A DNA stretch of 64,000 nt from Eubacteriales bacterium (GTDB taxonomy: Bacteria > Bacillota > Clostridia > Oscillospirales > CAG-272), in assembly GCA_045598385.1 (NCBI GenBank), contig JAZLLY010000019.1:1205-65204 (forward strand), read 5' to 3'. The translations under genes and the position numbers were made by a program. The notes beneath the pieces are model-generated. The model saw only the letters and a list, made by a program, of their open reading frames with translations. It searched no databases and had not been told where the DNA came from. This document shows positions 1 to 63,502 of the stretch, piece after piece; position 1 is the stretch's first letter, and every line of letters starts with the position of its first letter.

Positions 1-40
1 CCGCACGAGCGGAACACATCGTTCGCCCGCAGAGCGGGCG
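1..40. repeat. Edge fragment of the hairpin/linker repeat family (CCGC-ACGA-GCGG, AACACATCGTT, CGCCCGC-AGA-GCGGGCG)
   Basis: Contains GGAACACATCGTT, the end motif also seen at 18917-18930, 19117-19130 and 58637-58650, flanked by two GC stem-loops. Confidence 0.6.
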
Positions 41-5263: not shown

Positions 5264-6274
5264 ATGAAAAAATACTATTTACTCGGCTATTACGGACAGG
5301 GCAACATCGGCGACGACGCGATCCTCTCCTCCTTCCTGACGGCTTTTTCCTCGGAAGAGCGCGCTTTTTTCGTCCTGCCGGAACGCAAATACGAGGGGGT
5401 GATCTGTCGGTTTTTGCGTACGGTGCGAAAGATCAAAGAAGCCGACGGGCTGATCCTCGTCGGCGGCAATCTTCTGCAGAACGAAACCTCGAACCGTTCT
5501 CTTATTTTCTACCTTTCGTGTATGCGGCGTGCCGAAAGACGAAAAAAGCCCGTAACGGTTTTCGGCGGGATCGGAAGCATCGCGGGAAATATCTGGAAAT
5601 ATCTGTCGGGAGCGGTCCTGTCCCGCGCCGACGCGCTGTATCTGCGATCGCATGACGATATCAAAACGGCAAAAGAACTCACCGCCATCGCAAAGCGCCC
5701 CTGCCCGCCCGTGTCTTTCTGCCCCGACGCGGCGCTGTTTTCCCCTCCAAAGACAAAAGCCGGGCATACCCTCGGCGTCCTCGTCCTGAAAAAAGCGAAC
5801 GATCCCGCGGCGCACGAAGCATTGATCTGTCTTTTGCGTCGCTTGAAAATACCGCTTTTTCTCCTCGGCTTTTCGTCGCTTGACGCGCCCTATCTCTCTT
5901 CGCTCGGAGAACGCACGGGATTGCCCCTGCGGATGCCGAAGGACGAAAAAGAGGCAAAAACCGTCCTCGCAAAAGCCGCATTCTCGGTCTGCGAGCGGTA
6001 TCACGGCGGGATCTTTTCCCTCCTTACGGATACGCCGTGCTTTCTCGAGGTCTCGTCCGGGAAGAACCGGGGACTGGCAGAAGAAGTCAGGCGTGCGGCA
6101 AAGGATACGGGTGCGGCGGCGCCTCTTTGCGGTTTTCTTTTTTCTTCTCTAACAAAAGACGGTTCTTTCTTCCTTTCCGTACTGCGCAAAAAAATCGGAG
6201 GCATTTCTGCCTCCGATTTTGAAAAAGTCAGGCGCGGTCTTCTGACCGACCGACAAAGCATCAACCTTCCGTAG
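5264..6274 (+). CDS. Polysaccharide pyruvyl transferase family protein (CsaB-like)
   Basis: Starts MKKYYLLGYYGQGNIGDDAIL, the typical pyruvyl-transferase N-terminus. GGGAG RBS. The track start 5105 would read through the spoVG terminator. Confidence 0.7.
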   Translation: MKKYYLLGYYGQGNIGDDAILSSFLTAFSSEERAFFVLPERKYEGVICRFLRTVRKIKEADGLILVGGNLLQNETSNRSLIFYLSCMRRAERRKKPVTVFGGIGSIAGNIWKYLSGAVLSRADALYLRSHDDIKTAKELTAIAKRPCPPVSFCPDAALFSPPKTKAGHTLGVLVLKKANDPAAHEALICLLRRLKIPLFLLGFSSLDAPYLSSLGERTGLPLRMPKDEKEAKTVLAKAAFSVCERYHGGIFSLLTDTPCFLEVSSGKNRGLAEEVRRAAKDTGAAAPLCGFLFSSLTKDGSFFLSVLRKKIGGISASDFEKVRRGLLTDRQSINLP

Positions 6275-7985
6275 CGGGTGCTTCTTTCTTGTTTTTCTTG
6301 CCCAGCGTCTTTGCCAGAGAATCGGCAAGCGCCTTGGTGTTCTTCGCGACGGTCTTGAGATCCTCGTTGATCTCCGCCTGCAGATCGCCGTTGGCTTTCT
6401 GCTTTTCGGTGAGCGCTTTCTGATCGCGGAACAACTGTTTCTGACTGCCGATCACGTCTTTCTGTGCGTTCGTGATCTCGACCTGGAGCGAAGCGATCTC
6501 CTGCTGGATATCGTAGTTCTGTGCGTTCTCCTTGAGGATCTCGCGCTGATTCTTGTTGAGATTGTCCTGTTCGTCGATGATGCTCTTCATAGCGTCCTCG
6601 AGAGCGGTCTGCGCGTCGAGAACGGCTTTCTGATCGACGGTGGTGACTTTCTGAGACTCGACGATCTCTGCCTGGATGGCGGCGATGTTCTTCTGCTCTT
6701 CTGCGATGATCGCCTGGTTTTCCACGATGGCGATCTGGTCTTTACCGATGACTTTCTGATTGACCTGTACGCCCTCCTGCTCACGCAGCGTATAACGCTG
6801 AACGTCGTTGGTCTGGCGCTGCAGATCGACGATCTCTTTCTGCTTTTCGGCGATCTCCATGTGCGTAGCGGAAAGCGCCAGCATCTTTTCGTTCAGTTCC
6901 TTGACGTTTTCGAGCATACCCGTCAGTTTGTTCATGATGAAGTTTTCGTCGTCGGATACCTGCTCGGCGAGCTGGTATGCGTGACCGAACGCTTCCATGT
7001 TGGCGACGTTGGAATTCGACGCGACTTCGTCGATCTTCTCGGCGAGCAGCGCGATCTTGGCATCTACGTTCTCCGCCATGGACTGGAGCGCCTCGTTGAC
7101 GGTTTCGGTAATATCGAAATCGGGGTCAAGACCACTGACGAAAGCGGGCAGACTCGCCACATATTCGTTGATCTTCATCTCAAGCGCGGCACCGAACTTC
7201 TCCATCGCGCATTCGACGGCTTTCGTGATCTCCTTGGAAATGTCGATCGTGACGGGAGCCAGACGGTAAGAAGGTCTTTCCGGAGGATAGGGGTAACCGT
7301 AAGGCGGAACGGCAGGAGCGCCGGTGCGATCCTTGATATCGGCGACGGCGGCGGCAAGTCTTCTCACTTCATCTGCCAAAGCGTCGATCCTGAGACTGTC
7401 AGCGGTTGCCTGTTTGTTGTATGCGTTCATATCATGATCCCTTTCGTTTTCGTTTTCGTCGATTTTTTCGGGAGCGGGCTCATCCGGTTCTTCCGTGTCG
7501 TCCGCGTGCTTGAGATAATAGTCGATATCACCGATCGCCTTTTTATCCTTGACGCGTGCTTCGATATCCGCTTTCAGATTCTCGAAGTTCTGCACGACGT
7601 CGCTGCCGTTATCACGGATCTTGGTCTTCTCCGCCTCGTTCTTGGCAAAATCGGAATAGAAATAGTAACTTTCCGCAAGCTCTTTGATCTTGGCGTCGAG
7701 ATCGGTTTCCGCCGCGGCGATCTCCGATTCGATGTTCTGATACTCGAGATCGGTCTTCACCGACGCTTTGGCAAGCGCACGGTTTTTCGGCGAGATCTTC
7801 TGTTTCTCGTTGATCTCATCCAACTTGTCGGCTTTCTTCAAAAGTTTGTCCATCAGTCCGGCGTAATTCTTCAGTTTCTTTTTGATCTGAGACGTCAGAC
7901 TGCCGATCGACTTTTTGAGATCGCGTTTCGAGGGAATGAAATCTTCCATAGGTTCCGCGACGACGTCATTCGTTATGTTCGACAT
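6261..7985 (-). CDS. Coiled-coil protein of unknown function with C-terminal Gln-heptad repeat
   Basis: ORF with AGGAGG RBS before ATG 7983-7985 (MSNITNDVV). Charged helical sequence throughout, with a perfectly phased 7-aa repeat in the last ~190 aa. Confidence 0.75.
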   Translation of the reverse strand: MSNITNDVVAEPMEDFIPSKRDLKKSIGSLTSQIKKKLKNYAGLMDKLLKKADKLDEINEKQKISPKNRALAKASVKTDLEYQNIESEIAAAETDLDAKIKELAESYYFYSDFAKNEAEKTKIRDNGSDVVQNFENLKADIEARVKDKKAIGDIDYYLKHADDTEEPDEPAPEKIDENENERDHDMNAYNKQATADSLRIDALADEVRRLAAAVADIKDRTGAPAVPPYGYPYPPERPSYRLAPVTIDISKEITKAVECAMEKFGAALEMKINEYVASLPAFVSGLDPDFDITETVNEALQSMAENVDAKIALLAEKIDEVASNSNVANMEAFGHAYQLAEQVSDDENFIMNKLTGMLENVKELNEKMLALSATHMEIAEKQKEIVDLQRQTNDVQRYTLREQEGVQVNQKVIGKDQIAIVENQAIIAEEQKNIAAIQAEIVESQKVTTVDQKAVLDAQTALEDAMKSIIDEQDNLNKNQREILKENAQNYDIQQEIASLQVEITNAQKDVIGSQKQLFRDQKALTEKQKANGDLQAEINEDLKTVAKNTKALADSLAKTLGKKNKKEAPATEG

Positions 7986-8342
7986 AAAAAACCTCCTGTG
8001 TAGGGGTATATTTTTATACATTCTCATTATATCAAAGATAATTCTCTCCGTCAAGCATTTTTCTTACAATTTTTATGGAATATCAAAAAATATTTATCAA
8101 ATTGTCACGTTTGGTTAGCAATTAGAATAAAACGACGCGATTATGAAGATCAAAAAGGCGGATTTTCCGCCATTGGCTTATTAAAGCGCGTTCCACATTG
8201 CTTGCGTTTTTTCTTTTTTTCTTACCCGTCGGATCGCCGTTCGATGCGTTTTTGCTTCCCGTCAGACACCTCTTTTTTCTTTCCCCTGCGATTTTTCGTC
8301 AAAAAAAGACCGAAATCGCCTGGAAAGTACGGGTACGCGGTG

Positions 8343-8549
8343 AGTTATTTGGTGCGCGCGGCGCACAGTATAGTGTGCCAAAGGCACAGTTATGGTTTGC
8401 GGCTTTGCCGCAAAGTTATGATGCTCGCTACGCTCACAGTTATGATTTGCGCGGAGCGAAAAGTTATGATGTGCCAAAGGCACAGTTATGGTTTGCGCAA
8501 AGCGCAAATTTTTCCAAAAATAATAACTCATAGTTCATAACTCATAACT
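8343..8549 (+). repeat. Hairpin/linker array, AGTTATGRT-linker type only (copy 1)
   Basis: GTGCC-AAA-GGCAC, TTGCGGC-TTT-GCCGCAA, TTGCGC-AAA-GCGCAA and others, each followed by AGTTATGAT or AGTTATGGT. Ends with inverted CATAACT motifs. Confidence 0.8.
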
Positions 8550-8933: not shown

Positions 8934-10067
<1,134 letters not shown>

Positions 10068-10286
10068 AATGAACTCCTTTTTGTCGCCGATGCGCGCGTT
10101 TTCATCCCGAAAACCGGCAAACGGCAAAATTTTACTCTATTATTATAGCAAAAAAGGGCTCCTTTTTCAAGAGTCCTTTTTCACGAATTTGCGTCCCGTT
10201 TTTGTGCATCTTCAACAAAAATCCTTTCGTCTTTTCGTAAACCGAAGACAAAAACGGTTCTTGCTTTCTAATAAATTAGTCCGCAC

Positions 10287-12808: not shown

Positions 12809-15391
12809 TTGAAAAAGTCAAGTAGAATTCTGAGTCTTGTCTTCGCCCTGCTCCTCGTGATGCAGACACTGCTGCTCACGGGCTGTCAGATCCCTTACGA
12901 AGACACGCTGGCAAAGTGGTTCCCGTTCCTCGCAAATGACGAGCCGGAACCCAAAAATCCCGATGAACCCGAAGACCCCGCGGAGCCCGAAGAGCCCGAA
13001 GAGCCCGAAGAGCCCGAGGAACCCGAGGAACCCGAACTTCCGCCCCCCGAAGATTACGACTTTGAGCACACGGAAGAAGAAGATTCCTATTACATTACGA
13101 GCGCGACGGCGCTGCCCGACGGCGTCTCCCTCGACGATCCCGAGCTCTACGAAGAGATCATTGACAAGTGGCAGGAATATCTGATCGGCTCGCTCACCGG
13201 TTATGAAGTACAATACCCCGCGATCGTCGATAAGATCAACGCCCGTTCCCGCGACGCCGAGGCGGCGTGGGCGCTCTTCAAAGCGACCTATCAGCAAGAC
13301 GTCATCAACACGATGTTCCTGAATACCGGTTATCGCACGGGCGGCGCGTGGGATGAGACGTCCCTCGGTCTCGCCAGCGAAGCTTACGGTTATATCCGCG
13401 ACATGGCGCTCGGCTATAAGACACCCGGAACGACCACTTACGGCAACGAAGAGTTGCTCGCCGATACCAAGGACGCTCTCGATTATATGTACCGTTTCTA
13501 TAACGGACAGAACGTGAGATCCCTCACCTCCGACACGCTCGGCAACTGGTGGTACTGGGATATCGGTTTCCCGCTCGATCTTTGCGATATTCTGATCGTT
13601 CTCAAGGATGAACTGACGGAAGAAGAGATCGGCAATTATCTCTACAGTTTCGATTACAGAAACCCGAAGCCCACGCAGACGGCTGCCAACAAGATCTGGA
13701 TCGGCAGTTGCGTGCTGGCGTCCGCCGCTCTTCAAAAAGACGGAAGAAGGATCCTCACCGCGAAAGAAGAGATGAGCGAAGTCTTTGAGTACGTGACCAG
13801 CGGCGACGGCTTCTACGCCGACGGCTCTTTCGTCCAGCACAGAGCACAGCCGGCGTCCGGCGCTTACGGCATCAGTCTGATCTCCACCCTCTCCGAAGTC
13901 ATGATCGTCCTTTCCGACAGCCGCTTTGCATTCCGCGGCGAAGAGATCAGCAACCAGTACGAATGGGCACTCGAAGGACTCCGTCCCCTGCTCTTCAACG
14001 GTCTGAACCTCACGGCTTCCGTGAAAGTCCGTGAAGCGTCGCGTGAGGATGCCAGCGAGTACAGAAATATGGCCAAATACGTGGCTGCCCTTATTAAAAT
14101 GGCATCTTACGCACCCGACGACGTGCTTCCGAAGCTCAAATCCGTCATCCGCACCTGTATGAAAGCCGCCGACACCGACTTCACGTCGAGCGTCTCCCTC
14201 TACTTCACGACGTTCCTCATCGGTCTTGAAGCCGACGACTCGGTGCCGCTCCAGACGGATTACTCCTGCTTCAAGGTTTACGGCAACATGGACAGAGTCG
14301 TGATGCATAACGCCAACTTCGGCGTCTGCGTCGCCATGAGTTCCACCCGTATCGCCAAATACGAGGCGCTCAACGACGAGAATATGCGCGGCTGGTACCA
14401 GGGCGACGGTATGATCTACATCTACACCGACGGTTTTGATTACAACTACGACTTCTATTCGAGAGCCGACGCCTACCGTATGCCCGGCACGACCGTCACG
14501 ACGATGGTGAGACGCGAGCAGAACCTCAGCAACCAGAACCTGATCTACGGCAACTCCGCTTTCGCCGGCGGTCTCGAATGCGGCAATTACGGCATCGCGG
14601 CGTTCCAGCTCGGTTACAAGAAAAACGACAGTTACTCTCCTCTGCCCGAAACGACCGGCAACAAGTCCTATTTCATCTTTGACGACGAGATCGTCTGCGT
14701 CGGTACCAACCTGCTCTCCGGTCTTCCTTCGAATACCACTTACAAGTTCCTGACAGTCGTTGAAAACCGGCAGATCCGCCAGGGCGATACCTTCACGATC
14801 AACGGTCAGCAGATGGAACTGAAGACGTCCGAAAAGAAAGCATCCGCCAACTTCGCACACTTCGACAACATGGGCGGTTACGTCTTCTTGCGCAGCACCG
14901 AACTCACCTACAAGAAGAGATCGACGCTCGGTTACGACAGTCTCGAGCTTTGCATCTACCATCCGACGAATGCGAAAGGCACTTACGCTTACGCTTATCT
15001 GCCCGAAGCGACCGAAGACGAGACCCGCGCTTACGCGCAGAAGTCCGGCGTCACCGTCGTACAGATGACCGATACCATCCACGTCGTCTCGGATAAATCC
15101 ACCGGCACGAAGGGCTACGTCTTCTTCGCGGCAGGAACTGCGAGCGATAATACGACGGCTTCCGCCCCCTGCATCGTCTCCCTTTACAGAGAGAACGGAC
15201 AGTACGTCATCGCGGCTTCCGACCCGACGCATAAGCTGTCGAGTTTCACCGTGACGATGTCTCTCTCCTCGACGGTACAGATCGACAAAGCGGACGCGGG
15301 TGTCACCGCCACCGCCAACAACGGTCTTGTCACCGTCAAGGTCACGCCGAATCAGAAATGCGGCGAAACTTACAAAGTTTTCCTTAAATAA
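12809..15391 (+). CDS. Polysaccharide lyase family 8-like lipoprotein (hyaluronate/chondroitin/xanthan lyase type)
   Basis: Signal peptide with lipobox LLTGC. PL8-like motifs NWWYWDIGFP, YADGSFVQH and YRMPGTTV. TTG start with AGGAG RBS. Confidence 0.8.
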   Translation: MKKSSRILSLVFALLLVMQTLLLTGCQIPYEDTLAKWFPFLANDEPEPKNPDEPEDPAEPEEPEEPEEPEEPEEPELPPPEDYDFEHTEEEDSYYITSATALPDGVSLDDPELYEEIIDKWQEYLIGSLTGYEVQYPAIVDKINARSRDAEAAWALFKATYQQDVINTMFLNTGYRTGGAWDETSLGLASEAYGYIRDMALGYKTPGTTTYGNEELLADTKDALDYMYRFYNGQNVRSLTSDTLGNWWYWDIGFPLDLCDILIVLKDELTEEEIGNYLYSFDYRNPKPTQTAANKIWIGSCVLASAALQKDGRRILTAKEEMSEVFEYVTSGDGFYADGSFVQHRAQPASGAYGISLISTLSEVMIVLSDSRFAFRGEEISNQYEWALEGLRPLLFNGLNLTASVKVREASREDASEYRNMAKYVAALIKMASYAPDDVLPKLKSVIRTCMKAADTDFTSSVSLYFTTFLIGLEADDSVPLQTDYSCFKVYGNMDRVVMHNANFGVCVAMSSTRIAKYEALNDENMRGWYQGDGMIYIYTDGFDYNYDFYSRADAYRMPGTTVTTMVRREQNLSNQNLIYGNSAFAGGLECGNYGIAAFQLGYKKNDSYSPLPETTGNKSYFIFDDEIVCVGTNLLSGLPSNTTYKFLTVVENRQIRQGDTFTINGQQMELKTSEKKASANFAHFDNMGGYVFLRSTELTYKKRSTLGYDSLELCIYHPTNAKGTYAYAYLPEATEDETRAYAQKSGVTVVQMTDTIHVVSDKSTGTKGYVFFAAGTASDNTTASAPCIVSLYRENGQYVIAASDPTHKLSSFTVTMSLSSTVQIDKADAGVTATANNGLVTVKVTPNQKCGETYKVFLK
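12983..13036 (+). repeat. 6 x 9-bp tandem repeat encoding the (EPE)n acidic linker of the PL8 lipoprotein
   Basis: GAGCCCGAA x3, then GAGCCCGAG, GAACCCGAG and GAACCCGAA. Confidence 0.85.
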
Positions 15392-16289: not shown

Positions 16290-16745
16290 GCCGCCAACGG
16301 CGGCAACGATGTGTTCCGCAAGCGGAACGTGATGCGCACTCCGTGCGTGATGTACGCCTGCGGCGAGTGATGTGCCGGCGGGCGTGGGTAGGGGTTCCCC
16401 GAAGCGAGCTTGTCGAGTTTTGGGGGTTCCCGTGGATAGGGGTTCCCCGAAGCGAGCTTGCCGAGCTTTGGGGGTTCCCGTGGATAGGGGTTCCCCGAAG
16501 CGAGTTTGCCGAGCTTTGGGGGTTCCCGTGCGTAGAACACATCTCATAACTTTGCGGTGCAACCGCAAACCATAACGGTGAGCAAAGCGAACCTCATAAC
16601 TTCGAGCGTAGCGAGAATCATAACTATGCCGCAGGCAAACCATAACTTTGCGGCAAAGCCGCAAATCATAACTTCGAGCGTAGCGAGAATCATAACTTTG
16701 CCGCAGGCAAACCATAACTTTACGGCATAACCGCAAATCATAACT
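16290..16745 (-). repeat. Hairpin/linker array, full composite with expanded CATAAC units (copy 2, reverse orientation relative to copy 5)
   Basis: GCCGCC-AAC-GGCGGC, AACGATGTGTTCC-GCAAGC-GGAAC, three hairpins linked by GTGATGY, then nine units linked by A(T/C)CATAAC(T). Confidence 0.85.
16390..16533. repeat. 3 x 48-bp tandem repeat nested inside array copy 2
   Basis: AGGGGTTCCCCGAAGCGAGCTTGYCGAGYTTTGGGGGTTCCCGTGGAT at 16390, 16438 and 16486. Each unit can form CCCCGAAGC/GCTTTGGGG. Confidence 0.85.
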
Positions 16746-16823
16746 TTCATACTCACCCGGCGAAAAGAAGTTTTACAATTTCTTTTCGCCTTTTTCTTTT
16801 TTGACATTTTTCGCGATTTTCCC

Positions 16824-18873: not shown

Positions 18874-19162
18874 ATCCGCGTGAGCGGTATGGAATCCGTC
18901 GCAGACGGCATGGCATCCGCGCGAGCGGAACACATCGTTGAAAAAACAAAATTATAAAGTGATGTTTGCCCTGACGGGCAAGTGATGTTATGGCTACGCC
19001 ATAGTGATGTTTTGCGGTTGCACCGCAAAGTGATGAGATGTGTTCCACACGCCCGCAGGCACATCACTCGCCGCAGGCGTACATCACGCACGGAGTGCGC
19101 ATCACGTTCCGCTTCCGGAACACATCGTTGAAAAAACCACTTGCAAAAGCAAGTGGTTTTTT
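18874..19162 (+). repeat. Hairpin/linker array plus terminator hairpin (copy 3), abutting tRNA-Tyr
   Basis: Four GTGATG linkers (18959, 18982, 19004, 19030), three CATCAC linkers (19061, 19081, 19099), then CCACTTGC-AAAA-GCAAGTGG and T6. Confidence 0.85.
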
Positions 19163-19163
19163 C

Positions 19164-19248
19164 TGGTGGGGGAAGGTGGATTCGGACCACCGAAGTCAGT
19201 GACAACAGATTTACAGTCTGCCCCCTTTGGCCGCTCGGGAATTCCCCC
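19164..19248 (-). tRNA. tRNA-Tyr (anticodon GTA), CCA encoded, long variable arm
   Basis: Reverse complement is GGGGGAATTCCCGAGCGGCCAAAGGGGGCAGACTGTAAATCTGTTGTCACTGACTTCGGTGGTCCGAATCCACCTTCCCCCACCA. The cloverleaf was folded by hand. Confidence 0.9.
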
Positions 19249-22966: not shown

Positions 22967-23153
22967 CGCCGCTCGCGGCGAACGATGCGTTTCACTGCGC
23001 GAAACGTGATGTGCACTTCGTGCGTGATATACACCTATGGCGAGTGATGTGCCTGCGGGCGACGGGGAACGCATCTCATAACTTTGCGGCAAAGCCGCAA
23101 ATCATAACTGTACCGTAGGTATATCATAACTTGCCGAGCGGGCAATCATAACT
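22967..23153 (-). repeat. Hairpin/linker array, diverged copy (copy 4)
   Basis: CGCCG-CTCG-CGGCG, AACGATGCGTTTC-ACTGCGC-GAAAC, GTGATG-linked hairpins, GGAACGCATC, then three ATCATAACT-linked hairpins. Confidence 0.8.
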
Positions 23154-57068: not shown

Positions 57069-57076
57069 CATGGCTA

Positions 57077-57170
57077 ACAGAGTAGGAACAGGCGCGAACA
57101 GTGTCTGCGGGACGGGGAGTTGTCCGCAGAACGAAAGGGAAACCGCGGTGCCTCTTCCGCATCCCACTGT
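57077..57170 (+). promoter_or_regulatory. THF (tetrahydrofolate) riboswitch
   Basis: ACAGAGUAGGAACAGGCGCG...GGGACGGGGAG...ACGAAAGGGAAACCGCGGUG...CCGCAUCCCACUGU aligns by eye to the folT-motif aptamer (AGAGUAG, CGCG, ACGAA, GCGGUG, GCAUCC). Lies directly upstream of a folT-like gene. Confidence 0.8.
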
Positions 57171-57205
57171 GAAAACAGCAATCTATGGATACACTCTGTC
57201 GGAGA

Positions 57206-57973
57206 ATGATGAAAAATAACGATTCCGACATCCAAACGCTTTCCGGGCGTTCTTCCTTGCGCGAGTATCTCTGCGCCTCGGTCAACGATTTTCGCGACCT
57301 CAAAAAAATCACCCTCGCGGGGTTGATGGCGGCGCTGTCCGCCGCCCTGCAAATCGTAACACTGTCCCTGACGAGCAGTTTGAAGATCCAGATCACCTTT
57401 CTCGTCAGCGCGATCAGCGGCGCGATGTTCGGCCCGTTTCTCTCGCTTTTGCGCGGTGCGGTCGCCGATATTGTGGGCTTTCTCTTGTACTCGAGCGACC
57501 CGTTTTTCTTCGGATACACCCTCTCGGCGATGCTCGGCGCCCTCGTCTATTCCTTGTTTCTCTACCGTCAGAAGATCACACTCTTTCGGATTTTCGTCTC
57601 GAAAGCGATCGTCAATTACGCTGTCAACGCGGCGCTCGGCAGCGTCTGGAACGTGATGCTTCTCGGCAAAAATACGTATCTCGGCTATCTCGCGGTGTCT
57701 CTCGCCAAAAATACGGTGCTTCTGCCGCTCGAGGTTCTCGTGATTCTTTTGCTCTTCTCTTCGCTCATCCCCGTGATGTCGCGGTACGGGCTGATCAAAA
57801 AACAGGAGACTTTCGAGGTGCGGGCGGTCACGGTCGTCTCGCTCTGCGCCCTCTTTTTTCTCATCGGCGCGGTTCTCATCCTGTATTTCGTATTTCCCGA
57901 CACCCTTTCGGCGATCTTCTCGCCGATCTATACCGCCGTCAAAGATTTCTTCAAAACCCGTCTTGTCAAATAA
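57206..57973 (+). CDS. folT: Folate-family ECF transporter S component
   Basis: Polytopic S-component pattern (FGPFLSLLRGAVADIVGFLL, FFFGYTLSAMLGALVYSLFLY). Sits behind the THF riboswitch. GGAG RBS. Confidence 0.8.
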   Translation: MMKNNDSDIQTLSGRSSLREYLCASVNDFRDLKKITLAGLMAALSAALQIVTLSLTSSLKIQITFLVSAISGAMFGPFLSLLRGAVADIVGFLLYSSDPFFFGYTLSAMLGALVYSLFLYRQKITLFRIFVSKAIVNYAVNAALGSVWNVMLLGKNTYLGYLAVSLAKNTVLLPLEVLVILLLFSSLIPVMSRYGLIKKQETFEVRAVTVVSLCALFFLIGAVLILYFVFPDTLSAIFSPIYTAVKDFFKTRLVK

Positions 57974-58327: not shown

Positions 58328-58371
58328 AAAAGCGAAGACGGCGCGCGCCGCATGCTATAATATCCGTTCCT

Positions 58372-58687
58372 TATACGCCTGTGGCGTATATCATCCGCGT
58401 AAGTGGATATCATTGTAAAAAACAAAATTATAAAGTGATGTTTGTCCTGACGGGCAAGTTATGGTGCGCGTAAACGCGCAGTTATGATTTGCGCAAGCGC
58501 AAAGTTATGATTCTCGCTCCGCTCGCAGTTATGATTTGCGGTTGCACCGCAAAGTTATGAGATGTGTTCCTACACGCCCGCAGGCACATCACTCGCCGCA
58601 GGCGTACATCACGCACGGAGTGCGCATCACGTTCCGCTTGCGGAACACATCGTTGAAAAAACCACTTGCAAAAGCAAGTGGTTTTTT
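58372..58687 (+). repeat. Hairpin/linker array plus terminator hairpin (copy 5), abutting tRNA-Gln
   Basis: Ten stem-loops separated by AGTGATGT or AGTTATGRT (left half) and ACATCAC or GCATCAC (right half), then CCACTTGC-AAAA-GCAAGTGG and T6. Confidence 0.85.
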
Positions 58688-58688
58688 C

Positions 58689-58763
58689 TGGCAGGGGTAG
58701 CTGGATTCGGACCAACGAGTGCAGGAGTCAAAGTCCTGTGCCTTACCGCTTGGCTATACCCCC
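58689..58763 (-). tRNA. tRNA-Gln (anticodon TTG), CCA encoded
   Basis: Reverse complement is GGGGGTATAGCCAAGCGGTAAGGCACAGGACTTTGACTCCTGCACTCGTTGGTCCGAATCCAGCTACCCCTGCCA. The cloverleaf was folded by hand. Confidence 0.9.

Positions 58764-63446: not shown

Positions 63447-63502
<56 letters not shown>

Follow-up and report, generated by a model that had tools for sequence, protein, structure and literature searches.

The intervening sequence (IVS) in the 23S rRNA of Coxiella has been described as a selfish element: the inverted repeats at its ends make up a 28-bp stem that is cut by RNase III, and it carries an open reading frame (ORF) for an S23p protein, upstream of which lie tandem heptamers whose number varies among strains (PMC4990558). 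The S23p protein of Xanthomonas was reported to be a homopentameric toroid of four-helix bundles (PMC4990558). Gut-1 RNA, a second described system, was found in human-gut sequences and rated as an RNA on the basis of covariation (Weinberg et al., 2010, Genome Biol 11:R31; PMC2864571). In this study, we analyzed a repeat family composed of short GC-rich hairpins punctuated by constant heptamers, which occurs at six loci of a 64,000-nt stretch, hereafter the window, on contig JAZLLY010000019.1 of an Oscillospirales bacterium (GCA_045598385.1). The arms of these arrays were found to resemble the Gut-1 motif, and arrays of the same type in related bacteria were found beside genes of the family PF05635 (23S_rRNA_IVP), which comprises S23p and Avd-like proteins. 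The window arrays may thus represent the gene-less form of IVS-like elements, an interpretation that is weighed below against its alternatives.

Architecture of the arrays and their relation to Gut-1 RNA

In the window, the linker heptamers GTTATGR and GTGATGT were detected 31 and 14 times, respectively, as compared with 7.2 ± 2.9 and 4.1 ± 2.2 matches in shuffled sequences, none of which reached the observed counts. Nearly all of the linker matches lay inside the arrays and clustered at the six sites, which together account for approximately 2% of the 64 kb. The arrays gave folding z-scores of about −6 on both strands. When palindromy and clustering were counted over the window plus about 100 related loci, 80% of the 373 inter-linker units (217 distinct) showed at least four Watson–Crick pairs from their ends, as opposed to 0.6% of shuffled units. 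The enrichment of the linkers, the palindromy of the units, and the folding z-scores thus demonstrated that the heptamer-linked hairpin repeat is real and structured.

The basic unit consists of a 7-nt linker (GTTATGA or GTGATGT; complement TCATAAC or ACATCAC) and a GC-rich mini-palindrome of 13–19 nt. Units are arranged head to tail within an arm, and the two arms are mutually inverted, the usual layout being (GTTATGA + hairpin)n followed by (hairpin + TCATAAC)m. The 89 linker clusters included 39 convergent two-arm elements, 6 divergent ones, and 39 one-armed arrays. One subfamily displayed positional homology across species and loci, with TTGCC..GGCAA as the first unit and GTKRAAG..GGCAATCATA as the centre, and possessed a 14-bp terminal inverted repeat (GTTTAGAGTTATGA / TCATAACTCTAAAC). 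The related loci bore out the proposal of a first-pass annotation, which had been made from the letters of the window alone, that the arrays constitute a modular, multi-copy intergenic family in which the short linker is constant and the palindromic units vary.

A pattern search (AGTTATGR N13-20, three times) of a genome collection holding one genome per species returned mostly plain tandem repeats of heptamers from cyanobacteria and Bacteroidota; among the matches listed, at least four metagenome-assembled genomes (MAGs) of Clostridia carried true family members (loci L015, L086, L094, and L101). A narrower pattern identified 97 loci in rumen- and gut-type metagenomes, and the source names given for homologues of the RsmG protein encoded in the window were those of Ruminococcaceae and Oscillospiraceae bacteria. 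The family, unusual in its architecture, is widespread among gut and rumen bacteria of the Oscillospiraceae type. Since viral contigs yielded 0 matches to the pattern, plasmids showed no similarity, and the phage collection gave a single unverified faecal contig, the element is not obviously phage- or plasmid-borne, as judged from these sequence matches.

The 97 metagenome loci and at least four Clostridia MAGs outside the window also bear on the reading that the arrays are an assembly artefact or a purely local duplication. Contigs do often break inside arrays (L219), and many PF05635 genes were found only on very short contigs. The six copies lie, however, in differing gene contexts, independent assemblies, made in many studies from many sources, agree with one another, and the architecture is already contained in the Gut-1 seed alignment of 2010; this reading is refuted.

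At the Rfam gathering thresholds, the window yields only a tetrahydrofolate (THF) riboswitch and tRNAs, and the first-pass annotation had recognised no described family in the arrays. A permissive Rfam scan did not bear out the absence of a described relative, in that full-length matches (1–77 of 77) to Gut-1 (RF01706) were obtained on all four large arrays, with scores of 30–40 bits and E-values from about 2e-6 to 7e-3. These matches are located at 58581–58655 (− strand, 39.6 bits, E 1.8e-6), 19056–19130 (−, 38.5 bits), 16304–16378 (+, 37.7 bits), 18957–19041 (+, 35.1 bits), and 22980–23055 (+, 30.4 bits); even the first and best of them stays below the RF01706 gathering score of 50 bits, which no window array reached. 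As a positive control, positions 747–822 of L208 scored 63.6 bits, and a GTTATGA element is found some 50 nt away from this bona fide Gut-1 copy. In the alignment of the window sequences to the Gut-1 consensus, the three stems and the linker positions were matched, with GUGAUGC or GUGAUGU replacing GUGAAAU. The Gut-1 seed alignment itself holds complete two-arm elements, in which a GUGAUAU arm is followed by GUUUGACC... (a centre of the GUUUGA type) and then by an AUAUCAC arm, and one of its sequences is placed after a tRNA and its terminator.

Gut-1 thus shares with the window arrays a series of at least three short GC hairpins parted by a conserved heptamer linker, and it originates from human-gut metagenomes of uncultured Clostridia-like bacteria. 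It differs in the linkers themselves, which are GUGAAAU or GUGAUAU as opposed to GUGAUGU and GUUAUGA in the window, and the Rfam model describes one arm only, in an entry typed as a small RNA (sRNA) gene. On the strength of these alignments, one array arm corresponds to the Gut-1 motif, and the arrays are to be placed as a sister or variant of the described family rather than as members by the Rfam cut-off.

The unit loops displayed a strict strand asymmetry: in the GTTATGA orientation, loops of 3–4 nt were T..C in 98 distinct units and G..A in 0, and those of the TCATAAC strand were GNA or GNNA (GAA, GCA, GTA, GGA, GCAA, GTCA, and others). Since both arms keep this rule, each in its own orientation, the element is reverse-complement symmetric. 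C:G-closed GNA triloops are the classic hyper-stable DNA mini-hairpins of the d(GCGAAGC) type, and GNNA is broader than the GNRA rule of RNA. The asymmetry hints at a single-stranded DNA form of the units. Stem mismatches were rare (AC 9 vs. GT 5) and showed no G-U-type strand bias; with so few of them, an assignment of the RNA strand via G-U wobble was abandoned.

A single-stranded DNA hairpin is also central to an explanation modelled on repetitive extragenic palindromic (REP) sequences and bacterial interspersed mosaic elements (BIMEs), according to which the hairpin with its unpaired tag is the single-stranded DNA substrate of an HUH Y1 transposase, similar to the REP-associated tyrosine transposases (RAYTs), that is encoded once elsewhere in the genome and copies units into tandem and inverted clusters. 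The one-stranded GNA/GNNA loops and the mismatches free of RNA-type bias agree with it, as do the conserved unpaired tag beside a short palindrome, the dominance of tag-outside inverted pairs among the convergent and divergent clusters (39 vs. 6, comparable to head-to-head REP dimers), and a high-copy, extragenic distribution over co-directional and convergent spacers, as for REPs (PMC3733652). The tag is, however, a heptamer and neither GTAG nor CGTC; the hairpins are hypervariable even within one genome (the 217 distinct units), in contrast to the specific REP hairpins that RAYTs recognise; the units of an arm are direct tandems and do not alternate as in BIMEs; and the gene beside the arrays of relatives belongs to PF05635 and does not encode a transposase. 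A crude Y1-motif regular expression run over 626 kb of carrier DNA came back empty, which is a weak test since RAYTs are single-copy. We regard a REP-type origin as unlikely.

PF05635 genes beside the arrays of relatives

Small ORFs between neighbouring arrays were identified as PF05635 genes, with E-values of about 1e-26 in L086 and L142, and none of the genes lying between neighbouring arrays encoded a transposase. Relatives with the same linkers carried PF05635 genes at L086, L142, L182, L220, L230, and L236. L086 and L236 both show a left arm, a Shine–Dalgarno sequence, the PF05635 gene, and a right arm, in this order. L220 and L230 have a complete two-arm element that stops 20–40 nt short of the start codon, with the Shine–Dalgarno sequence and the gene following it. 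In L142, a 26-nt direct repeat brackets the PF05635 cassette inside the array. A profile search of all fetched ORFs detected PF05635 genes only adjacent to heptamer arrays. Five more cases, in which the gene lies at most about 110 nt from a heptamer array, were found among the loci of the genome-collection search, in a member of the Chloroflexaceae, a deltaproteobacterium, a member of the Victivallales, and two Bacteroidales, with (GTNRTGA)n upstream of the gene or inverted (TCAYNAC)n downstream of it, and mostly with both.

The association was further assessed by an independent test, in which PF05635 proteins were picked by homology alone (P0171, P0147, and P0123 from Clostridia; P0283, P0316, and P0342 from Bacteroidales). 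All six of the corresponding genes were flanked by heptamer arrays. As the window arrays occupy such a small share of the sequence (only about 2%), an adjacency of arrays and PF05635 genes by chance is very unlikely.

The heptamer was found to differ between PF05635 lineages, being GTTATGA in Clostridia, GAGNGRT in Bacteroidales, GCAAAAT in L163, and GACAGAT in Coxiella; at the sequence level, it thus seems to change with the protein lineage. In L163 (4200–5000) and L139, a PF05635 homologue that is 40% identical to the Clostridial proteins is flanked by inverted GCAAAAT / ATTTTGC arrays. Genes for four-helix-bundle proteins of the PF05635/bAvd type bracketed by plain heptamer tandems were also observed in Bacteroidales, Chloroflexaceae, Deltaproteobacteria, and Victivallales (L014, L034, L054, L068, L083, L243, L244, and L245), for example with (GAGAGGT)n upstream and (CTCACCN)n downstream, each side sometimes having a long hairpin of its own. 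When L230 and L231 (1–1500) were compared, the same array–PF05635 cassette was preceded in one sample by a GMP-synthase-like gene and in the other by a gene with a TIR/SEFIR domain, which retains no more than a few final codons of the GMP-synthase-like gene; this pair points to a recent rearrangement or to the insertion of a defence-like gene at the junction. Many PF05635 clusters were present only on contigs of 500–2000 nt, which fits assemblies that break in the flanking repeats.

Our preferred interpretation, to which we assign a probability of roughly one half, is that the window arrays represent IVS-like elements, selfish or neutral, in a form devoid of the gene, which reside in untranslated regions (UTRs) and spacers and evolve by unit slippage. 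Gene-bearing relatives have the PF05635 gene beside or between the same arms, and the window copies would be gene-less derivatives of such elements. The arrays would be transcribed within 3′ UTRs or operon spacers, as may be supposed from the three window copies that lie between a stop codon and a terminator, and they would fold into branched stem structures; in minimum-free-energy folds, 594 of 893 linker nucleotides were predicted to be paired across the arms. They would mostly be neutral passengers, perhaps affecting the processing of mRNA 3′ ends or mRNA stability, and by analogy with the rRNA IVSs, for which cleavage by RNase III is the precedent, they might themselves be processed. The arrays would grow and shrink as the identical heptamers give rise to replication slippage or to unequal recombination, the hairpins would stay palindromic via compensatory change or template-switch correction, and the seeding of new copies may involve the PF05635 protein.

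Several observations weigh against this interpretation. No PF05635 gene lies in or beside the six window copies, and a profile search of the 64 kb found none, so that the link to this protein family rests on the relatives. In L220 and L230 the element lies upstream of the gene, and the arrays could thus be targets or regulatory sites rather than termini. T/G variants of the linker are uncompensated between the arms (L147, L162, L169, L161, and L205), and three window copies pair GTTATG left arms with CATCAC right arms, which results in a mismatch per rung. For these two reasons, a strict IVS-like continuous stem is doubtful in the window copies, and the selected feature may be the heptamer itself, through recognition by a protein, rather than cross-arm pairing. 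At the element borders, no target-site duplication was seen, and a mechanism at the level of DNA would account for the loop asymmetry no less well than one based on RNA.

Recognition of the linker is the basis of a different explanation, in which the heptamers between the hairpins would be multivalent RNA or DNA sites for the pentameric PF05635 protein or another factor, serving as autoregulatory sites, a sponge, or targets in trans, and in which Gut-1 would be a true structured RNA. This would fit the conservation of linker identity where cross-arm pairing is not conserved, the arrays that end 20–40 nt before a PF05635 start codon (in L236 as in L220 and L230), and the lineage-specific heptamers of Clostridia, Bacteroidales, L163, and Coxiella. 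The closest solved PF05635 homologue, 2RLD, has five chains, in line with the homopentameric toroid reported for S23p (PMC4990558), and the covariation on which Weinberg et al. rated Gut-1 as certainly an RNA (PMC2864571) points in the same direction. The unbiased orientation of the arms relative to the neighbouring mRNAs (43 vs. 34), however, speaks against a strand-specific RNA role. Arrays are moreover absent at orthologous sites of a relative, and individual copies are therefore dispensable; the neighbours are unrelated housekeeping genes without a functional theme. We attach a low probability to this explanation.

Homologues of PF05635 proteins number in the thousands, with more than 7,700 matches per search. 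To our knowledge, no role has been described for these proteins outside the Avd protein of diversity-generating retroelements. In the literature searched, no paper ties GTTATGA/TCATAAC arrays, Gut-1, and PF05635 together or generalises the Coxiella precedent, and there is no later mention of Gut-1, nor of two-arm modularity, a REP-like distribution, or a PF05635 linkage. The general linkage among PF05635, heptamer arrays, and Gut-1 is apparently unreported.

A broader proposal is put forward tentatively, the odds being against it: the heptamer arrays, which in the present family alternate with mini-hairpins and are in part catalogued as Gut-1, might be the cognate nucleic-acid partner of the Avd-like, pentameric PF05635 family, and the two might together form a widespread, unrecognised selfish or IVS-like class in the intergenic spacers of Clostridia, Bacteroidota, Chloroflexota, Deltaproteobacteria, and bacteria of the Planctomycetes–Verrucomicrobia–Chlamydiae (PVC) group, as well as in rRNA genes. 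The heptamers would then be what the protein recognises, whether as termini, as a site of autoregulation, or as a signal for mobilisation, and gene-less arrays, including the six in the window, would be non-autonomous derivatives. If this is true, three orphans would be joined, namely the Gut-1 motif of 2010, the PF05635 proteins, and the heptamer arrays of many phyla. Through the PF05635 linkage, the function of all three comes within reach of experiment, and a handle is gained on the origin of rRNA intervening sequences.

Location, turnover, and composition of the individual copies

Of 135 arms, 126 were intergenic according to a crude gene caller. The flanking genes were oriented ++ in 23 cases, −− in 21, convergently in 18, and divergently in 2. 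With so few divergent cases (2/64), the arms avoid promoter-only spacers and are biased toward spacers that hold the 3′ end of a gene.

The avoidance of divergent spacers bears on the explanation that the trains are host-selected 3′-end elements, that is, terminators, pause sites, or barriers to 3′ exonucleases that protect the upstream mRNA or tRNA precursor, spread by ordinary duplication. Arrays do occur between stop codons and terminators or just past terminators, an array was present no more than 60 nt from the 3′ end in 3 of the 7 tRNA genes sampled, and the GTTATGA-oriented unit, which consists of a GC hairpin and U-rich GUUAUGAUUU, was flagged as terminator-like by a consensus scan. 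Against this, both orientations are equally common downstream of genes, proper terminators exist besides the arrays, and some copies lie in a 5′ UTR or within an operon, directly before a ribosome-binding site (L101 and L086). Ordinary duplication also fails to explain the same heptamer and the same positional modules at unrelated loci in many genera. We therefore give little credence to a host-selected 3′-end function.

The spacer between rsmG and parB provides a direct view of turnover. In a syntenic relative (L216/L217; GCA_002315715.1), whose RsmG is 74% identical, this spacer measures 145 nt and contains a terminator, as compared with 542 nt in the window; the relative has no array in this spacer and none at the site of the 8343–8549 copy. 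The supposition that arrays change by unit duplication was substantiated by a 72-nt, three-unit duplication in the window, by a block of about 75 nt and four units that is present three times in L238 and twice at the same locus in L236, and by the orthologous loci L162 and L167, whose units differ. Since orthologous sites differ in presence, unit content, and block number, individual copies are gained, lost, and remodelled on short evolutionary scales. Exact-protein look-ups for two window genes gave no match, and a 100%-identical RsmG was found only on a 996-nt contig (L219) that ends inside the array. The arrays thus break metagenome assemblies, and annotation may wrongly call them sRNA genes or terminators; they also constitute fast-evolving, strain-discriminating loci in abundant gut and rumen Oscillospiraceae. 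At L216 12960–13190 (GCA_002315715.1 / Ga0207380_10225168), a hairpin train with other linkers, TATCTCAT and ATATCATCAC, directly follows tRNA-Tyr in this relative, which lacks the GTTATGA arrays. Because this tRNA-Tyr is opposite in orientation to that of the window, the tRNA-plus-array segment appears to be inverted between the two genomes.

When the sequence was re-read, the train at 58372–58687 proved to be as the first-pass annotation had given it, save for the corrections noted here. The 58-kb copy begins with left flank modules (58355–58427, +), in which the hairpins TATACGCC-TGT-GGCGTATA and ATCCGC-GTAA-GTGGAT are joined by linkers of the TCA / TATCAT type and followed by the AT-rich module AAAAAACAAAATTATAAA. 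This flank gave a weak full-length match to Gut-1 (58355–58415, −, 22.8 bits), and a homologous module is present at 18874–18958. The possibility of a sigma-70 promoter in the AAAAAACAAAATTATAAA module was discarded, as the hexamer spacing is wrong and a consensus scan gave no call. The left arm (58428–58560, +) contains six linkers, GTGATGT at 58435 and GTTATGR at 58458, 58481, 58504, 58528, and 58554, each followed by a unit of 15–19 nt, and four of its five inter-linker units are perfect or near-perfect palindromes. The train had been described as one of stem-loops, which holds for most units and fails for some, such as the non-palindromic TTCTCGCTCCGCTCGCA at 58511–58527. The right arm (58561–58649, +) reads GATGTGTTCC, GCC-CGCA-GGC, ACATCAC, CGCC-GCA-GGCG, ACATCAC, GCAC-GGA-GTGC, GCATCAC, GTTCCGC-TT-GCGGAAC, and ACATCGTTG; it has GNA-type loops on the + strand, and its − strand forms the Gut-1-like hairpin triplet. 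A bidirectional terminator-type hairpin at 58650–58687, A6-CCACTTGC-AAAA-GCAAGTGG-T6, with a 15-bp stem in folding, abuts the 3′ end of tRNA-Gln (58689–58763, −).

The second copy (18874–19162, +), which has the same orientation, abuts tRNA-Tyr (19164–19248, −) and is composed of a partial right-arm-like module (18874–18940), an AT-rich module, a left arm with GTGATGT/GTGATGA linkers (18959–19040), a right arm with ACATCAC, ACATCAC, and GCATCAC (19041–19130), and, at 19125–19162 beside the tRNA gene, a recurrence of the 58-kb terminator sequence. Both copies are situated between a stop codon and a bidirectional terminator that they have in common. A tRNA-Met/tRNA-Ile anticodon-loop mimic or sponge was considered on account of UCAUAAC, which matches the tRNA-Met loop at 63480; this idea was dropped, since the linkers are placed between hairpins and their variants disrupt the register, with no other observation in its favour.

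The faecal contig from the phage collection (L246; MT835887.1, "UNVERIFIED: Bacteriophage sp.", human faeces) shows, at 190–330, a right-arm end of ACATCAC GTTCCGTGCAACGGAAC ACATCGTTG, then an A6-hairpin-T6 terminator and the apparent 3′ part of an opposite-strand tRNA gene, the arrangement of window positions 58630–58763. It may represent the attachment junction of a prophage at a tRNA gene, or else a contig of bacterial origin that was labelled as phage in error. Closer to the 58-kb copy, the THF riboswitch (57076–57171, +, 76 bits) lies directly upstream of a gene at 57185–57973 (+), which gave a sub-threshold match to the S-component of energy-coupling factor (ECF) transporters (27.8 bits vs. 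a cut-off of 30.7) and which probably encodes, as far as these matches indicate, a folate-family transporter under riboswitch control.

The remaining copies were likewise real, namely the inverted 16-kb and 23-kb copies, the array at 8343–8549, and the fragment at 1–40. The inverted 16-kb array, annotated at first as 16290–16745, begins 8 nt past the stop codon of rsmG (16282; RsmG by Pfam). Its right arm (16290–16382, −) reads GTGATGC, GTGATGT, and GTGATGT on the + strand, and its left arm (16531–16747, −) holds ten CATAAC linkers and a tandem duplication at 16565–16746, the repeated 72 nt comprising three units (2.6 copies, 89% identity). Exactly between the arms lies a tandem insert (16383–16530), CGTGGATAGGGGTTCCCCGAAGCGAGCTTGCCGAGCTTTGGGGGTTCC, of 48 nt in 3.1 copies (Tandem Repeats Finder, 96% matches, score 268), which is unrelated to the linker-hairpin units. 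A GGGGAACC-rich stretch similar to this insert precedes the array of L101, and the insert may represent a second small repeat family. As a strong + strand terminator hairpin with a T-run follows at 16759–16800, the whole 16-kb array lies in the 3′ UTR of rsmG.

The fourth copy (22967–23153, −) is located between the convergent genes of an M20 peptidase and pyruvate kinase, beyond the terminator-like hairpins of these neighbours. On the + strand, its right arm (22967–23060) contains GTGATGT, GTGATAT, and GTGATGT, and its left arm (23061–23153) contains four TCATAAC linkers; its long-range pair GATGCGTTCC / GAAACGCATC shows a compensatory change relative to GATGTGTTCC / GGAACACATC of other copies. 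The mainly one-armed array at 8343–8549 (+), between two − strand genes (6261–8054 and the MalK-like 8934–10127), comprises degenerate units followed by five GTTATGR linkers (8389–8491). It is not strictly the left-half-only array that it had been taken for, since it closes with two inverted linkers, TCATAAC TCATAAC, at 8535–8548. The fragment at 1–40 (+), a right-arm end cut by the window edge, consists of CCGCACGAGCGGAACACATCGTTC and the hairpin GCCCGCAGAGCGGGC.

According to our own gene map, six linker clusters are intergenic, as had been claimed, with the fragment overlapping the tail of a gene: it covers the last approximately 23 codons of a DUF1295 open frame (3–929, −), whose Pfam domain ends at about 71. 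The window genes that flank arrays are of the housekeeping kind (RsmG, ParB-HTH, an SLH protein, the M20 peptidase, pyruvate kinase, a MIF-like protein, IMPDH, and the MalK-like ATPase). A polysaccharide lyase family 8 protein of 860 aa, with N-terminal, central, and C-terminal domains, is encoded at 12809–15391 (+); it is conserved in the syntenic relative, and its gene has rsmG and genes of glycolysis (in the relative, PGK and TIM) as its surroundings.

Comparison with known systems

CRISPR arrays have repeats of 24–48 bp, unique non-palindromic spacers, and cas genes nearby. The arrays described here are rightly held not to be CRISPR-like, for their constant part is 7 nt, their variable palindromes are shared between loci, and their flanking genes are housekeeping genes. 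Type III toxin–antitoxin (ToxI-like) repeats, integron attC sites, dif/Xer sites, and iterons were also considered and set aside, as they misfit in unit size, in orientation pattern, or in the missing partner genes. The pneumococcal BOX element (boxA-boxB(n)-boxC) is a modular intergenic repeat in which the number of internal units varies and the complementary ends can form a long stem-loop; we know of no transposase and no associated protein gene for it. The arrays resemble BOX in being modular, intergenic, and variable in unit number, and differ from it in that BOX modules measure 45–59 nt and do not form linker-hairpin trains, no sequence relationship being expected. With regard to miniature inverted-repeat transposable elements (MITEs), the arrays offer the 14-bp terminal inverted repeat of one subfamily and the 26-nt direct repeat that flanks the PF05635 cassette of L142; neither a target-site duplication at the borders nor a transposase was found.

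The likeness to BIMEs and REPs that had been suggested from the window holds for the genomic distribution and fails for the defining tag and the unit orientation. Short extragenic palindromes with an unpaired tag, a high copy number, tandem and inverted clusters, and spacers downstream of genes are common to the arrays and to REPs, BIMEs, and REPINs (REP doublets forming hairpins) (PMC3733652, PMC3116915). In place of the GTAG/CGTC tag by which REPs are defined (PMC3733652), the arrays carry TCATAAC/GTTATGA or ACATCAC/GTGATGT; their stems are 5–7 bp long and hypervariable, and inversion is confined to the two arms, neighbouring units not alternating as they do in BIMEs. Firmicutes and Clostridia do not occur in the text of the REP survey (PMC3733652). 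If the arrays are only REP-like passengers, they would represent a new repeat family in a phylum in which elements of the REP type are little described, a useful and unsurprising addition.

The 23S rRNA IVSs with an S23p/PF05635 ORF in Leptospira, Coxiella, and Xanthomonas (PMC4990558) differ from the arrays in location, since the arrays occupy UTRs and the spacers of protein and tRNA genes rather than helices of 23S rRNA. Most array copies, including all six in the window, are devoid of an ORF, and the array heptamers are interleaved with GC mini-hairpins. In other respects the two systems are alike: a single protein family accompanies the repeats of both, the repeats at the ends are inverted and may form a stem (for the arrays a prediction from folding), and tandem heptamers of strain-variable copy number are positioned upstream of the ORF, in elements that are regarded as selfish and have no known mechanism of mobility (PMC4990558).

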